From: a virus
Reading direction: 5' to 3' (one strand)
Length of the DNA: 48,552 nt
Virus genome (UHGV): UHGV-0142349
Position numbers and translations under genes: made by a program. The notes under the pieces are model-generated. The model was not told where the DNA came from. It worked only from the letters and a program-made list of their open reading frames with translations, and ran no database searches. Below are positions 2,425-41,235 of the stretch, one piece after another (position 1 is the stretch's first letter; the number at the start of each line of letters is the position of its first letter).

Positions 2425-2500
2425 GGCCCCTTAGCTCAGTGGTTAGAGCAGGCGACTCATAATCGCACGGTCATCGGTTCAAATCCGGTAGGGGCCACCA
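2425..2500 (+). tRNA. tRNA with CAU anticodon (elongator type; tRNA-Ile2/lysidine-like or Met)
   Basis: 76 nt cloverleaf: acceptor GGCCCCT/AGGGGCC, D-arm GCTC..GAGC, anticodon loop CTCATAA, T-loop TTCAAAT, 3' CCA; G1-C72 pair argues against initiator; 5' half recalled as close to enterobacterial ileX. Confidence 0.85.
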
Positions 2501-31533: not shown

Positions 31534-31605
31534 TTTGCGAATTGCCTCTGTGTCGTCTGAACGATATTTTTTCCCGCTTTTAGCAACAATCGCGGTTTAG
31601 AAAGT

Positions 31606-32160
31606 ATGCAATATGGTTATGCGAGGGTGTCAACTTTTGACCAGAATTTGGAATTACAACTGGAGGCGCTCAGGAGTTCAGGATGTGACCGGATTTTTGA
31701 AGATAAAATATCCGGTGCTAAATCAAAACGACCAGGGCTTGATAAGCTACTGAAGGTGTTACGGCCGGGCGATACGGTTATTGTCTGGAAGCTGGATCGA
31801 ATGGGGCGTTCTCTGATTCATCTTGTTGATTTACTTAACCATTTTTTATCAAACAACATTGAGTTTATTTCGATTACGGAAGGGATAAAAATTAGCACTT
31901 CAATTGGCCGCTTTGCCTACACGATGCTGAGTGCAGTCGCAGAGATGGAGCGGGAAAATATGATTGAAAGAACGCGTGCAGGATTGGCGGTGGCAAGGGC
32001 TAATGGCAGGATAGGAGGACGCCGCTCAAAATTGGCCCCAGAGCAATGGGAACAGATCGGAAGGCTTATTGCGAATGGTGTTTCACGTAAGCGGATAGCG
32101 ATTATCTTCGATGTTACCTTATCCACGCTTTACCGCAGGTTTCCGGCTGGGAATCATTGA
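31606..32160 (+). CDS. serine recombinase, DNA invertase (Gin/Hin/Pin/Cin family)
   Basis: N-terminal YARVSTFDQNLELQ with catalytic Ser; small size with C-terminal HTH; adjacent to invertible segment. Confidence 0.85.
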   Translation: MQYGYARVSTFDQNLELQLEALRSSGCDRIFEDKISGAKSKRPGLDKLLKVLRPGDTVIVWKLDRMGRSLIHLVDLLNHFLSNNIEFISITEGIKISTSIGRFAYTMLSAVAEMERENMIERTRAGLAVARANGRIGGRRSKLAPEQWEQIGRLIANGVSRKRIAIIFDVTLSTLYRRFPAGNH

Positions 32161-32341
32161 CTGGAGTTAGGCCAGTAGTATGATGCTCGCAAAACGAGAT
32201 CCAATTTAGATCCTTTTACTGGTGGATTATCGTTCGATCAGTGAGAGACTTCGTGCATGACCGAAAGTGTTGTGGTAGAGTTCTCTTAAAACCACGTAAC
32301 GTGGTTATGATTGTGGGTGTCTGGTTGGAAAGCGACCAGAT

Positions 32342-37683: not shown

Positions 37684-38952
37684 TTATGGTCTGCTTTTCT
37701 GTGCCAGCTTATCAGCACATGTTTTTATCAGATCCTGTAGTGTCCTGGCTGGCAGGTTTGCATCCAGAACGCTGAGTATGCTGTTGTGATCAGCCTGGTC
37801 GACTACTTTGCCTGTCGGTGGTAGTAGCTTGAGCTGAGGATTCAGGTCCTCGTCAAAGCTGATAAGTGCTCTGGCGTTCCTGAGCAGATCAAGAAGTAAG
37901 GCTGATATCACATTTTCCTGAGTCATTGCTGGCAGACTTAGCGCCGCTTTAGTTTTCTCCGTCGCCTTGTCAAACTCTTTGATTAGTGTCTTGCGGTAGT
38001 TCGGTTCCGTTAATAGCCGATTATGCTCTGTTGCCGCGCGGATAATCGTTTTTTCTTGGTACAGTCGTTTAGCCAGATCACGCTCGTACTGTGTTTTTAA
38101 CACGCTGCTGATAGCGTTAAAGGCTTCAATGTAGGCCAGCTTGATATCTTTTACGCCTGGACCGTCGATGCTCTCCATGAGCAAGGTAAATCCGTCTTTT
38201 GTCATGCGATAGATTGTTATTTCGCGGTCGCTTCCTTCCAACGGTCGTTGCTCTTTAAAGAAATGACGCGCCGCAGCTGTGCGAGGAATGCGTAACGCAT
38301 CGATGGCCATAACGATGGAATTGTTTGTGGTGCTGAATGCCTGGGCAACATCGGCCGAGGTTGTGAGTGGCTCGTTATTGCACACCTTAATGTAAAACAT
38401 CGGTTTGGCGTTGAGCGTATCGACAACCTCACGAGCATTGTTTGGCGAGACGGTTACGGTCGCGGCCGTTTGCGCGTTCTGGTTGAAGTAGCAGTCTTCC
38501 AGCCGTTCGAACACATCCCACGCTTGGTTAGTTTCAAGCATTTTGGCGTGACGTGCAGCCCCGCGTTCTGTCCAGAGAATGAGGGAGCGAACGTTACGGG
38601 CGATTTTCACAGAGTGACTTTTAGTTACCTTGTGGTTAACAGAGTAGTTTAAAACTACTCTGTGCTCGTCGCTCTCTCTTTTAGAGGGGGCGTCATTAAC
38701 TGAATCTCTTAAAGAGTTTTTGTTCTTCACATCATTATCTTGAGTCACTTTGTGCTTTAACTCTCGAAGTTCGTTACCTTCAATTTTGAAGTAGTGCTTA
38801 CCTTCAATGAAGCGTTCCTTATTCTCATGATGATTTTGTCGAATGCGTACAGGAGATACGCCGTAAAGCTGTGCCAGTAACTCGGTAGTAATGACAGGGA
38901 TTTGGTTATGCAGGATAGGCTGTAGGGTGTTAACGGTCGGAAGCGTTTTCAT
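37684..38952 (-). CDS. antirepressor (KilA-N/ORF6N-like N-domain, Ant-like)
   Basis: 422 aa; N-terminal ITTELLAQLYGVSPVRIRQNHHENKERFIEGKHYFKIEGNELRELK resembles ORF6N/KilA-N. Confidence 0.65.
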   Translation of the reverse strand: MKTLPTVNTLQPILHNQIPVITTELLAQLYGVSPVRIRQNHHENKERFIEGKHYFKIEGNELRELKHKVTQDNDVKNKNSLRDSVNDAPSKRESDEHRVVLNYSVNHKVTKSHSVKIARNVRSLILWTERGAARHAKMLETNQAWDVFERLEDCYFNQNAQTAATVTVSPNNAREVVDTLNAKPMFYIKVCNNEPLTTSADVAQAFSTTNNSIVMAIDALRIPRTAAARHFFKEQRPLEGSDREITIYRMTKDGFTLLMESIDGPGVKDIKLAYIEAFNAISSVLKTQYERDLAKRLYQEKTIIRAATEHNRLLTEPNYRKTLIKEFDKATEKTKAALSLPAMTQENVISALLLDLLRNARALISFDEDLNPQLKLLPPTGKVVDQADHNSILSVLDANLPARTLQDLIKTCADKLAQKSRP

Positions 38953-39176
38953 TTTGCACCTCCCATAACTACTTTGGTTACGAGGGAGATTTTTGCGTCA
39001 GAAACAGCGTTATCGTTGCTGGCGATGCGCATAGCTTCGCGCTCGATGATTTCAGCCAGGCGGAATTTATCGGCGTATGAGGCTTTCTTGAGAAGGATCT
39101 TTACGAGGTTGACGTAATAGTCATGGGGTAGGTTTGTCATTGTGATATCTCCAGTATATGGAACTATCACCGCCAT
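38949..39176 (-). CDS. small protein upstream of antirepressor (possible regulator)
   Basis: 75 aa overlapping ant start; start may be internal Met. Confidence 0.35.
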   Translation of the reverse strand: MAVIVPYTGDITMTNLPHDYYVNLVKILLKKASYADKFRLAEIIEREAMRIASNDNAVSDAKISLVTKVVMGGAK

Positions 39177-39435
39177 TCGAGGCTAATCAAATGGTGGTGA
39201 GCCGTACAGGGTTAGCCTTACCGGACACAATGACGAACCGGCGCGGATTTCTCCGCCCCTGTACGACCCACCATAATTTGGGCGTAACAGTGCTCTACGC
39301 ATAAAAAAACCGCTAACGCGGTATGCGCCATCGTGTTATTCAGGAGGCTAATCCCGACCGTAGATTTTGCTACGGCTCGGAAAGTGTCCACCAATGGCGC
39401 ATTCATGTCAATACGGCGGGATTTTAACAGAGACA

Positions 39436-39448
39436 ACCACATAGCGTG
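39436..39448. promoter_or_regulatory. operator-like site CCACATAGCGTGG upstream of ant operon
   Basis: Matches CCACAT-N3-GTGG motif seen in repressor/cro intergenic region. Confidence 0.45.
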
Positions 39449-39473
39449 GGTTTATTGGTAGGCAGAAACAAAA

Positions 39474-39498
39474 AAACCGCCCTATTGAGGACGGTTCT
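39474..39498 (-). terminator. minus-strand rho-independent terminator
   Basis: Hairpin accgccct/aggacggt with A7 before on + strand (T-run after on minus). Confidence 0.45.
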
Positions 39499-39893
39499 TT
39501 CGTGCTGATCGGATTCGCGGTCCTTTCAGCATTACGTTGTTGTATAAACAACCACGCAAGCACAAGCAGCAAATTGATTTTACTCAAAAGGTAATAATAG
39601 TCCACTATTATACATCAAAAAATTGTGGTTCTTGTTGTGTCAGCAAACTCACAGATTGTGGGTAGGTTACTGATTTTGTGAAAATAAACTGTTTTTTTCG
39701 TTTAATTTCTTTCCTATTACTAATCTTAAAATAATCGTAAAATACCTGTGGACCTTCCCGCCGATTCGCACCCGGGCACCGACTTTAGGGGAGGATTTCC
39801 TGTTGCCGTACATGCAAGCACAAGCAGCCGTGCTTGCTCTCGCGTTGTTTTCGTCGGTGGGGATGCCGTGAAACGGCCTGTAAGGGCCATACA

Positions 39894-40016
39894 ATGAAAA
39901 AATACTGTATGTGTATTTTTATCGTTGTTACTGGAGCTTTGTTTACGCCACATGGGGAGGGTTGGAAGATTACTGATAACGCTCTGAATGTGACGATAAA
40001 CATTAGCAGCAAGTAG
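39894..40016 (+). CDS. small hydrophobic protein (40 aa), candidate type I toxin-like peptide
   Basis: MKKYCMCIFIVVTGALFTPHGEGWKITDNALNVTINISSK; followed by terminator at 40022..40045. Confidence 0.3.
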   Translation: MKKYCMCIFIVVTGALFTPHGEGWKITDNALNVTINISSK

Positions 40017-40021
40017 CGATT

Positions 40022-40045
40022 AGGCCCCTTCGGGGGCCTTTTTTA
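40022..40045 (+). terminator. rho-independent terminator
   Basis: ggcccc-ttcg-ggggcc then TTTTTT. Confidence 0.65.
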
Positions 40046-40054
40046 TGGTTGAAT

Positions 40055-40237
40055 TTAAACGCTGGAGCGCATTAAGCCTTTCAGAACTGCTTCACGTACC
40101 CATTCTGGTCTGGTGGATAGCAGGGCAAATAAGCGGCCAGCTTGCAGCCGTTTGAGGTCGGTTAGACGAGTTTTCAGTAACCGTGTATATTGTTGTTCGG
40201 ACATAACAAATTCCCCTTGTTGTGTCGCGACGGCCAA
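40055..40237 (-). CDS. hypothetical protein
   Basis: 60 aa ORF downstream of parG-like gene. Confidence 0.3.
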   Translation of the reverse strand: MAVATQQGEFVMSEQQYTRLLKTRLTDLKRLQAGRLFALLSTRPEWVREAVLKGLMRSSV

Positions 40238-40266: not shown

Positions 40267-40515
40267 TTACTTCTGGTTGTATTGAGCCTTGAGTAACTCA
40301 AAAGATTTTGTCAGCACTTCTTTCAATGACATATCCATTGAGCTGGCGAACGTTTTGTACTCGCGTTTAAATTCAGGGTCGACGTTAAACGCCATTTGTG
40401 CCCCACCTGATTTGGTTCTGGCTGGCGTTTCAGTCGGGTCGAAAACCTGCGGTTGTTCGATCGATGGCGGTACGCCTTTGCTGTTCTTCTTTGGTGGTTT
40501 TGATGGTGCGGCCAT
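40267..40515 (-). CDS. partition protein, ParG-like (ribbon-helix-helix centromere-binding)
   Basis: 82 aa, basic flexible N-terminus, directly downstream of ParA-like ATPase gene (type Ib layout). Confidence 0.5.
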   Translation of the reverse strand: MAAPSKPPKKNSKGVPPSIEQPQVFDPTETPARTKSGGAQMAFNVDPEFKREYKTFASSMDMSLKEVLTKSFELLKAQYNQK

Positions 40516-40527
40516 GTGTATCCCCTC

Positions 40528-40563
40528 TTATATAAATCTATAAAACTATAATTATATATTACG
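40528..40563. repeat. AT-rich near-palindromic motif copy
   Basis: TTATATAAATCTATAAAACTATAATTATATATTAC. Confidence 0.5.
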
Positions 40564-41212
40564 CGGCAGTAGTCAGAGCCTCAAGCTGGTTGATAATCCC
40601 CTGAATAACGTCGTCTGCCTTTTTGCGTGGCGCAACGTATGAGCATTCAATGAGGCTTAAGCCCTTATCCTGAGCTTTGCTCAGAGCTGGCTTGTGGGGA
40701 ATGTACTTATCGACAACAAAGTATGGCGTATTAGCCAGGTACTCTTGGGCTTCAATGTAGTCGGCTTCGTTTTCAGCCGCGCCTGAGAACACCATGCAAA
40801 TTTTCTTGATTGGCACACCCTTTTTAACGATGCCATGAGCTGTGTTAACGGTGGTTTCCAGGTCATCGGTAGAGAATCTGGTTGGCAAAATAACCATATC
40901 CAGAAATTCAGAGAGCTTCGGTACTGATTCAGATGCGTAGGCACCGCCATCGACGATAACCAGGTCGTATACTTCTGATTCGATGATTTTCTGGACTTGT
41001 GATGGCGTGCCGCACGGCTGCGCCGCGATTGCAGGTTCGATATTGTTGGCCATTCTGCGTTGTACCCAACGCGTTACCGTTCCGTTAAGCACATCCATAT
41101 CGATCAGGCATACATTCCAGCCGGCCTTTGCATAAGCAACTGCTAAAGCACGGGCAATTGTTGATTTGGTTACGCCGCCTTTTCCGTTGAAAATACCTAC
41201 AGAGATAGTCAT
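40559..41212 (-). CDS. partition ATPase ParA (small ParA/ParF-like, Walker type)
   Basis: Deviant Walker A GKGGVTKST; start at ATG 41212 (SD GGAG upstream) rather than track start 41227. Confidence 0.7.
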   Translation of the reverse strand: MTISVGIFNGKGGVTKSTIARALAVAYAKAGWNVCLIDMDVLNGTVTRWVQRRMANNIEPAIAAQPCGTPSQVQKIIESEVYDLVIVDGGAYASESVPKLSEFLDMVILPTRFSTDDLETTVNTAHGIVKKGVPIKKICMVFSGAAENEADYIEAQEYLANTPYFVVDKYIPHKPALSKAQDKGLSLIECSYVAPRKKADDVIQGIINQLEALTTAA

Positions 41213-41235
41213 TTGTCGAGACTCCATGTGTTTGG

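Follow-up and report, generated by a model that had tools for sequence, protein, structure and literature searches.

UHGV virus genome UHGV-0142349, a stretch of 48,552 nucleotides analyzed here at its full length (the window), very probably carries at positions 39470-40045 a complete type I toxin-antitoxin (TA) module of the timPR family, borne on a phage-plasmid of ~48 kb. The module comprises a timP (ryfA) mRNA on the plus strand, which encodes a 40-aa TimP-like peptide, and a divergent TimR-like antisense small RNA (sRNA) on the minus strand, and it sits between an immI immunity operon and the parA partition gene. Computation established that the peptide and each of the RNAs are homologous to their timPR counterparts, that the two RNAs are predicted to pair, with co-variation of the paired segments, that the structural elements are conserved, and that the pair is predicted to be orthogonal to the chromosomal one of Escherichia coli K-12. 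The timP/TimR (ryfA) pair is an experimentally characterized type I system (PMC7667032, PMC11228461), and the phage-plasmid copy is a member of this known and well-studied family rather than a new kind of system. New about it are its setting on a mobile element, a divergent subtype of toxin that annotation overlooks, the natural variants of seed and structure, and the repeated adjacency to immI.

The timP mRNA, its peptide and the antisense RNA

The Rfam scan covered the whole 48.5-kb window and gave four matches above gathering score: ryfA, C4, isrK and one tRNA. The ryfA match (RF00126, 143.5 bits against a gathering score of 80) spans model positions 1-296 of 296 and places at 39748..40044 (+) an mRNA composed of a 146-nt structured 5' untranslated region (5'UTR), the toxin open reading frame (ORF) and a terminator. 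The relatives score 134-167 bits with the same model, and the window unit aligns end to end with the annotated ryfA of K-12. This RNA, formerly listed as a non-coding sRNA, is now recognized as the mRNA of TimP, a 38-aa toxic inner-membrane protein (PMC7667032). The ORF of the window (39894..40016 (+), stop codon included) extends from +147 to +269 of the mRNA, compared with a start at +145 in Salmonella (PMC7667032). A probable timP -10 box, TAAAAT, is readable at 39738..39743, 5-7 nt upstream of the RNA start; the -10 region GTAAnAT is kept in all relatives, and the flanking intergenic DNA is divergent.

A first-pass annotation of the same DNA had pointed to a hydrophobic 40-aa ORF and a strong terminator in an interval without large ORFs, and each of these observations holds. 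The ORF encodes MKKYCMCIFIVVTGALFTPHGEGWKITDNALNVTINISSK, a peptide with a hydrophobic N-terminal half (Kyte-Doolittle 9-residue means up to 2.9, residues 3-17). The intrinsic terminator (40022..40045 (+)) has its stem at 40022-40039 followed by a T-run, and is also the 3' hairpin of the Rfam model. The mechanical ORF list for 39177-40050 contains only ORFs of at most 75 aa. A 19-codon upstream ORF (uORF) in the leader (39812-39871 (+), ATG at 39812), which overlaps the TimR site, was rejected as a feature, being specific to the window and having ACG in place of the start codon in most relatives; the uORF of Salmonella timP is dispensable (PMC11228461).

The window peptide and TimP have in common the N-terminal motif MK..C.C(I/V)L(I/V)V(S/T)GAL, and pairwise BLASTP with K-12 TimP gave 36% identity (E 4e-8). 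The NCBIfam model NF040796 (toxic_TimP) aligned with the peptide over 1-40/40 (E 7e-5, 23 bits), no Pfam model matched it, and its entries in nr are named 'hypothetical protein' only. The C-terminal half, PHGEGWKITDNALNVTINISSK, forms a distinct subtype that is also present in two more divergent phage copies (L041 and L063). Judged by these comparisons, the phage-plasmid peptide is a divergent relative of TimP and not a member by the NCBI threshold. The ORF is intact in all 18 phage-type copies. Between L041 and L063 it has accumulated 15.5 synonymous and 5.5 non-synonymous differences, a non-synonymous to synonymous ratio (pN/pS) of 0.11, and comparison of these two copies with the window gave pN/pS values of 0.31-0.56; these values, from a small sample, are consistent with a translated peptide under selection.

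The ryfA-like RNA could instead be a non-coding regulatory sRNA here, the 40-aa ORF being incidental. Conservation of the ORF among close relatives is largely at the nucleotide level and could reflect RNA structure, but the ORF is intact, in the same position and provided with a Shine-Dalgarno sequence (SD) in every homologue examined, including L041 and L063, whose pN/pS points in the same direction. RyfA phenotypes in uropathogenic and avian pathogenic E. coli are treated as sRNA effects in several reports (PMC8205139, PMC10664665, PMC13188913), and the peptide is below the NCBIfam cut-off; its N-terminal motif, on the other hand, is common with the experimentally translated TimP (PMC7667032), and a toxin gene requires a cognate antisense RNA of its own, with a co-varying seed, such as is present here. 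We thus consider a purely non-coding function improbable and retain the toxin mRNA as the preferred reading.

The second RNA of the module was recognized by comparison with K-12, where timR (b4811, 100 nt) is annotated divergent from ryfA/timP. The minus strand of the window from 39570 to ~39468 aligns with K-12 timR in 72 identical columns, with the same length, terminator and 5' register (GCUG...). By this alignment the minus-strand RNA, with predicted ends at ~39570 and ~39470 (39470..39570, ~101 nt), is a TimR homologue. It is made up of a 5' seed (39570-39553), a conserved core hairpin (CUGnAAGGnCCGCGAAnCnnAnCAG), a terminator stem (~39500-39477) and a U-run (39476-39470). Across nine phage-borne and chromosomal copies, the core hairpin and terminator are kept with six compensatory pairs, and the first ~25 nt are variable. 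The folded window RNA (z = -5.5) leaves its first ~11 nt essentially unpaired and ends in a predicted 16-bp 3' hairpin followed by seven U. This is the terminator that had been reported from the letters at about 39474-39498: a simple scan missed it, and it is seen as the 3' hairpin of the folded RNA. The nhmmer scores of TimR are 82-104 bits for the close copies of the 48-kb family; L041 and L063 match in part, with 37-47 bits. A TimR family is absent from Rfam; sub-threshold Rfam matches on the sRNA, to RNAI (26.7 against 47 bits) and to Phe-leader, were treated as chance.

The probable TimR promoter lies at 39577..39604 (-), with a -35 element TGGACT (39604-39599), a 16-nt spacer and a -10 element TAAAAT (39582-39577). 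The same -35/-10 arrangement is found at a constant distance from the seed in the relatives L002-L007, L063 and L041, and because of this conserved position the 5' end of the sRNA probably falls at ~39570, the first base of the complementary block. The consensus TATAAT proposed earlier as a minus-strand promoter is indeed readable at 39612-39607, but is probably not the TimR promoter and was rejected: the 12 nt that hold it are deleted in L003 and L006, and both retain the sRNA. The gap between timR and timP is 178 nt in the window and 400 nt in K-12. Within the K-12 gap (L008, NC_000913.3) there is a second, unannotated TimR-like copy at 2676-2777 on the minus strand (record positions ~2653675-2653776). 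Its seed, GCUGAGACGCGCUUGC, does not match K-12 timP (-24.6 kcal/mol) and pairs at -33.6 to -35.9 kcal/mol with the timP leaders of Shigella flexneri and E. ruysiae; this copy may be an orphan antitoxin left from a sibling copy of ryfA.

Predicted pairing specificity and the proposed leader switch

The starting point for the pairing was a 15-mer, GCAAGCACAAGCAGC, noticed in two copies by the first-pass annotation. The whole window contains exactly two copies, one at 39556-39570 and one at 39814-39828 (for which the coordinate had been off by one), and the second copy does lie inside a leader hairpin (GCAAGCAC / GUGCUUGC, 39814-39837). The match extends to 18 nt (39553-39570 / 39811-39828) with one C/T difference, which yields a G-U pair. 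Exact direct repeats in 500 shuffles of the 951-nt region reached at most 14 nt, and none was 15 nt or longer. Two weaker repeats were judged to be chance, namely a 17-nt imperfect repeat (D3, 39658-74 / 39961-77, 82%) and a third weak copy of the 15-mer (39998-40012, 80%).

Duplex energies were calculated between the 5'-terminal 24 nt of the sRNA and nt 1-150 of the mRNA, in place of RNAduplex runs with the full-length RNAs, which had returned meaningless long-range structures. The window pair is predicted to form an 18-bp helix between mRNA nt 64-81 (39811-39828 (+)) and sRNA nt 1-18 (39570-39553) at -35.9 kcal/mol, consisting of 15 Watson-Crick pairs, one G-U pair and two further Watson-Crick pairs. 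For the K-12 pair the helix has 19 bp (mRNA nt 64-82, sRNA nt 1-19) and an energy of -36.2 kcal/mol. The mean for shuffled seeds was -21 kcal/mol, and 0 of 1000 reached the observed values. The predicted target corresponds to the 5' arm and loop of stem-loop 2 (SL2) and ends 66 nt before the AUG; probing data from Salmonella place the TimR site in SL2 as well (PMC11228461).

The seed and its target have changed together. Within the 48-kb family the seed variants are AAGCAGC (window), AAGCGGC (L002) and AAACAGC (L003-L007 and L001), each changed in both copies, and an extra A-to-G change on the mRNA side gives a G-U pair. Further seeds are found in L063 (GCACAAGUAAGC), in L041 (GCACUAACCUG) and in the chromosomal types (K-12, Shigella/E. 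ruysiae and Citrobacter), each matched by the sRNA upstream of it. The relatives contain six different seed/target sequences, and pairing is kept in all of them. The ryfA match, the TimR alignment, the K-12-like pairing positions and this co-variation together support the divergent type I TA arrangement that had been suggested from the letters alone.

In an all-against-all matrix, cognate pairs range from -31.7 to -39.6 kcal/mol. The window TimR reaches from -19.4 (K-12) to -27.5 kcal/mol with chromosomal timP leaders, and chromosomal TimRs reach about -19 to -21 kcal/mol with the window leader (K-12 TimR, -19.3). Each timP pairs best with its own TimR, except among the three close 48-kb variants, which cross-react at -31 to -35.5 kcal/mol. 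Since the non-cognate energies are weaker than the cognate ones, the plasmid module is predicted to be insulated in both directions from a K-12-type timPR of the host.

The leader was compared in an alignment of eight sequences (window, four 48-kb-family variants, L063, L041 and K-12), five rows of which are closely related. RNAalifold recovered unprompted a 7-bp helix between CACCGAC (39777-83) and GUCGGUG (39853-59). These are pseudoknot site 1 (39777..39783 (+)) and site 3 at the apex of SL3 (39853..39859 (+)), elements that have been defined in the literature (PMC11228461, PMC13000454) and whose pairing is essential for timP translation (PMC11228461). Site 2 (GCCGT, 39805..39809 (+)) can pair with site 4 (39873-39877 (+)) and open SL4, as described for the known system (PMC13000454). 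SL4 (GGCCT-GTAA-GGGCC, 39875-39888 (+)) would sequester the SD, read from the sequence as AAGGG in its loop and 3' arm (39882-39886 (+)). The predicted TimR-binding site (39811..39828 (+)) covers the 5' arm and loop of SL2 (39814-39837 (+)).

Pairing was scored on a structure written from the papers and the Rfam consensus. Over all leader elements 96.3% of the cells are paired, compared with 39-54% when the partners are slid by 1-3 columns, and there are four compensatory pairs in total. The site 1-3 pseudoknot is 100% paired, with all 7 bp in 8/8 sequences and two pairs changed on both sides; SL2 is 98% paired with one pair changed on both sides; SL4 is 100% paired with a compensatory C-G to U-A change in three sequences; and the 5-bp helix of site 2 (GCCGU, 39805-09) with site 4 (ACGGC, 39873-77) is 100% paired with one-sided changes only. 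These counts are compatible with the published structure and do not amount to proof of it. The published mechanism is supported by compensatory variants that occur naturally in the TimR seed, in SL4 and in the pseudoknot.

In Salmonella, overexpressed TimP is toxic and TimR represses its translation (PMC7667032). Toxicity, translational repression and the pseudoknot mechanism of the phage-plasmid copy are carried over here from this homologue, and by homology we take the published course of events as the most likely one. The plus strand would be transcribed constitutively from ~39748 into a ~297-nt mRNA that is born in an inactive fold, with four stem-loops in its 146-nt leader and the SD locked in SL4. 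For translation, the 7-bp pseudoknot between sites 1 and 3 would form and site 2 would pair with site 4, so that SL4 opens and the SD is freed. The single-stranded 5' end of TimR would pair over 18 bp with SL2 once the mRNA is in its active form, at a site lying upstream of the ribosome-binding site (RBS) by more than 60 nt, prevent the pseudoknotted conformation and in this way block toxin synthesis. Upon loss of TimR, synthesis of the small hydrophobic peptide would set in, with damage to the inner membrane as the expected result.

Several points weigh against identifying the locus as a functional timPR module. The peptide stays below the curated TimP cut-off (23 bits against the 45 required), which K-12 TimP passes with 86.8 bits, and its C-terminal half (PHGEGWK...NVTINISSK) is unlike that of chromosomal TimP, so its activity could differ. 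Because the 48-kb relatives are nucleotide-identical over most of the ORF, the evidence of selection on the peptide comes from the two divergent copies. Both promoters and both RNA 5' ends are computational placements. Finally, pairing between sites 1 and 2, which stabilizes the inactive conformation in the known system (PMC13000454), amounts in the window to a weak helix of only 4 bp, found by eye and unscored (GGCA 39775-78 with UGCC 39804-07, or CGAC with GUUG).

The adjoining immI module and the host element

The left part of the interval belongs to a different system. Positions 39190-39376 are a P1-type immI control region, whose IsrK-like RNA and C4 precede, in this order, an icd-like ORF and ant on the same strand. 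The IsrK-like RNA, the a1/b1 leader of the immI operon (39303..39376 (-)), matches RF01394 with 65.7 bits (gathering score 50), and the C4 antisense RNA (39190..39278 (-)) matches RF01695 with 70.8 bits (gathering score 45); both lie outside timPR. In L041, the stretch homologous to the IsrK-like RNA is also matched by RF03163, 'a1, b1 targets of C4'. Downstream of C4 follow the icd-like ORF (38949-39176) and ant (37684-38952), the product of which has ORF6N and Phage_pRha domains. The 10-nt repeat GAGGCTAATC (39179-88 and 39344-53) is part of the immI module. The minus-strand terminator that the first-pass annotation had placed at about 39304-39323 exists (the scan found 39322-39309 plus a T-run), but it is owned by the IsrK-like RNA, which it ends, and not by the TA locus. 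Antisense control of ant, which had been offered as an alternative explanation of the whole region, is a correct description of the IsrK-like and C4 RNAs at 39190-39376, and these form a separate neighbouring module.

Two complementarities within this module were noted. C4 (39278-39190) carries GUCAUUGUG, complementary to CACAAUGAC over the likely icd start (GGAGAUAUCACAAUGACA, AUG at ~39140 (-)), a relation that underlies the repeat pair 39126-39134 / 39226-39234. Its AGGCUAA is complementary to UUAGCCU, which is repeated just upstream of icd and within the IsrK-like RNA (39179-39188 / 39344-39353). As read from the sequence and the repeat table, these complementarities follow the a/b target scheme known from P1 immI.

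The RNA at 39470-39570 on the minus strand might be thought a leader, attenuator or extra antisense regulator of IsrK-C4-icd-ant, its match to timP being secondary. It is on the same strand as the IsrK-like and C4 RNAs and ~90 nt upstream of them, and read-through of its terminator would enter the immI operon, but that terminator is strong, with its predicted 16-bp 3' hairpin and run of seven U. In L001 (a Yersinia phage), L004 (the plasmid of ATCC 25922) and L005 (an O145 plasmid), an insert of ~0.7 kb with a helix-turn-helix (HTH, XRE-type) gene separates the promoter region of IsrK from the TimR terminator; the inserted gene converges on TimR, and one terminator serves both. The module adjoins immI in three independent arrangements, yet in the more distant phage-plasmid L041 (ParA 53% identical) the timR-timP pair lies downstream of ant instead of upstream of IsrK, on the opposite side and without a transcriptional link to C4. 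The gene order of L063 is that of the window. Chromosomal TimR homologues occur without an immI operon, and the target repeats of C4 are accounted for by IsrK and the icd RBS. A role of the RNA in the immunity circuit is therefore very unlikely, and, on the evidence of these arrangements, timPR is a discrete module.

The inserted HTH_3/XRE gene (~175-190 aa) is present in about a third of the relatives, absent from the window, and located at L004:1076-1603, L005:909-1481 and L001:4492-5064; the insertion point corresponds to window positions ~39455-39465. An additional immunity gene or a moron gene is a possible identity for it. Among phage-plasmids whose terminases are otherwise ≥99% identical, the stretch of ~130 nt that separates the TimR promoter from that of timP (39605-39737) is the most divergent part of the locus and cannot be reliably aligned; it contains repeated (A/G)ATTGTGG motifs at ~39621-27 and ~39654-61 that could be operator sites. 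On the other side, minus-strand ORFs of 60 aa (40055-40237) and 82 aa (40267-40515) lie ahead of parA (40559-41227) and converge on the timP terminator, which may be bidirectional. Some relatives have part of the 60-aa ORF annotated as a hypothetical protein of 49 aa. The 82-aa ORF, for which Pfam gave no match, could encode a ParA partner (ParG/ParB-like).

The element that carries the module is a phage-plasmid of myovirus type, ~48 kb in size. In the 681-nt timPR region the window shows 99.9% identity with pMB9880_3, a circular E. coli plasmid of 48.9 kb that encodes terminase, portal, capsid, tail sheath and tube, baseplate, holins and endolysin, as well as RepA, ParA, a RelE/ParE-type TA system and a LexA-like (HTH + S24) repressor. 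The type II TA system consists of a RelE/ParE (HigB2-like) toxin and an HTH antitoxin, at 31594-32240 of pMB9880_3 (L067) and 52-698 of L001. The tRNA gene of the window (2425-2497 (+), anticodon CAU) is annotated as tRNA-Ile in the near-identical pMB9880_3. A label 'pSLy3-like' for the element was dropped, as the literature places pSLy3 in the ~100-kb SSU5 supergroup.

The timPR region was found in 72 of 5,426 complete E. coli genomes, and 76 of its 77 places are on plasmids of 39-94 kb. Among the carriers is the reference strain ATCC 25922, which has the module at about 12.5-14.0 kb of its 48-kb plasmid NZ_CP037450.1. The number of complete E. coli genomes with the terminase of the element is likewise 72, its identity being at least 99% in every one of them, and timPR appears to belong to essentially every member of the ~48-kb family. 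In 26 of the 72 terminase-carrying genomes the timPR region is only 80-90% identical, with most of the divergence falling in the seed and in the ~170 nt that separate the two promoters. Further copies are on plasmids of E. fergusonii, E. albertii and Klebsiella aerogenes, in three isolated Yersinia pestis phages and in nine IMG/VR contigs, for which two pattern scans gave the identical nine true loci. Alignment of the phage-type TimP peptide against the contigs of species-representative genomes gave no confirmed relative, and a DNA-pattern scan of the same contigs gave no new phage-type copy, returning mostly chance GC-rich matches, along with the chromosomal ryfA of Escherichia, Shigella and Citrobacter. 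A megablast search of the PLSDB plasmids with the divergent L041 and L063 modules found nothing.

Most RefSeq relatives lack any annotation in the interval 39177-40050. Annotation pipelines miss timPR because the peptide is below the NCBIfam cut-off and there is no Rfam model of TimR, and recognition of the module accounts for ~600 bp of 'empty' intergenic DNA in widely sequenced plasmids. That the locus is an inactive remnant, a chromosome-derived ryfA-like sequence that is no longer expressed and retains the 15-nt repeat as a leftover, would fit with nearly all public records leaving it unannotated and with the 'hypothetical protein' entries in nr, but is most improbable given that seed and target have changed together at least four times in the phage lineage with 12-21 bp of pairing kept, that both -10 boxes, all leader helices, the ORF and both terminators are intact while the intergenic DNA between has diverged beyond reliable alignment, and that as many complete E. 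coli genomes (72) carry the timPR region as carry the terminase.

Possible roles and comparison with known systems

Descriptions of timPR to date concern a chromosomal locus in the core genome of enterobacteria. The literature searched contained no link of ryfA/timPR to phages or phage-plasmids, and the primary timPR papers are silent on mobile copies; the phage-plasmid copy provides a mobile-element context in which maintenance and exclusion can be tested. It is conceivable, at somewhat less than even chances, that timPR helps to keep the phage-plasmid in its lineage by post-segregational killing or stabilization. Post-segregational killing is the leading idea because the element is a low-copy RepA/ParA replicon, because timPR is found in as many genomes as the terminase and because TimR reportedly has a lower stability than timP mRNA in Salmonella (PMC7667032). 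Two observations speak against it: the element already carries a RelE/ParE-type type II TA system, so a maintenance role for timPR is not required, and the native TimP levels that follow deletion of timR in Salmonella still permit growth (PMC7667032), which weakens the killing model. Exclusion of competitors and abortive infection are alternative roles.

More speculatively, a mobile branch of timPR may have been recruited by phage-plasmids as an addiction or competition module. The lineage-specific seed and SL2 would then act as an 'address' that insulates it from the host and from distant phage-plasmid lineages, and its adjacency to immI might reflect a functional link, for example release of the toxin upon loss or displacement of the prophage. 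We hold this proposal to be doubtful; if it is true, timPR systems would gain their first assigned biological role, and the recruited branch would supply a natural panel of seed and pseudoknot variants for the structural-switch model.

Among known systems the closest is timP/TimR of Enterobacteriaceae (ryfA/STnc2070; RyfA1/RyfB1 in Shigella). Like the window locus, it has a ~300-nt RF00126 mRNA with an ORF near +145, a peptide with a hydrophobic, signal-peptide-like N-terminus, and a divergent sRNA of ~100 nt whose 5' end forms ~18 bp with SL2, at a distance of over 60 nt upstream of the RBS. Also common to both are the SD in SL4, the site 1-3 pseudoknot, the site 2-4 helix, and the core hairpin and terminator of TimR. 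The known locus is chromosomal, between sseA and sseB, whereas the window copy is on a phage-plasmid; the seed and target of the window (GCAAGCACAAGCAGC) differ from those of K-12, and the two pairs are predicted not to cross-pair, at about -19 kcal/mol compared with -36 for cognate pairs; the C-terminal half of the window toxin (PHGEGWKITDNALNVTINISSK) sets it apart from known TimP as a distinct subfamily below the NCBIfam cut-off; and the window copy, unlike K-12 timPR, is unannotated in RefSeq.

The pairs tisB/istR-1, shoB/ohsC, zor/orz and dinQ/agrB have the same divergent arrangement of a toxin mRNA and an antitoxin sRNA, with the block of complementarity visible as a direct repeat in the DNA, and in these as in the window the antitoxin binds the 5'UTR away from the RBS. 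None of them has sequence homology with the window locus, and according to the literature they depend on mRNA processing or on a standby site, whereas timP relies on a pseudoknot-based structural switch that involves no processing (PMC11228461). Plasmid R1's hok/sok system (parB), the classical type I example of post-segregational killing, resembles the window in that its extrachromosomal replicon encodes a small membrane toxin beside partition functions, and in a toxin translation that is set by mRNA folding and an antisense RNA; it is the model for the maintenance role considered above. Its sequence is unrelated to that of the window locus, Sok and the hok/mok leader overlap in cis, and hok requires 3' processing as well as a reading frame coupled to it (mok). 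Finally, the P1/P7 immI system (C4, icd, ant) and IsrK of Gifsy-1 are the counterparts of 39190-39376, which matches C4 and isrK and precedes an icd-like ORF and ant as in P1; with its own promoter and terminator, this immI module is separate from timPR and occupies only the left edge of the interval first noted.

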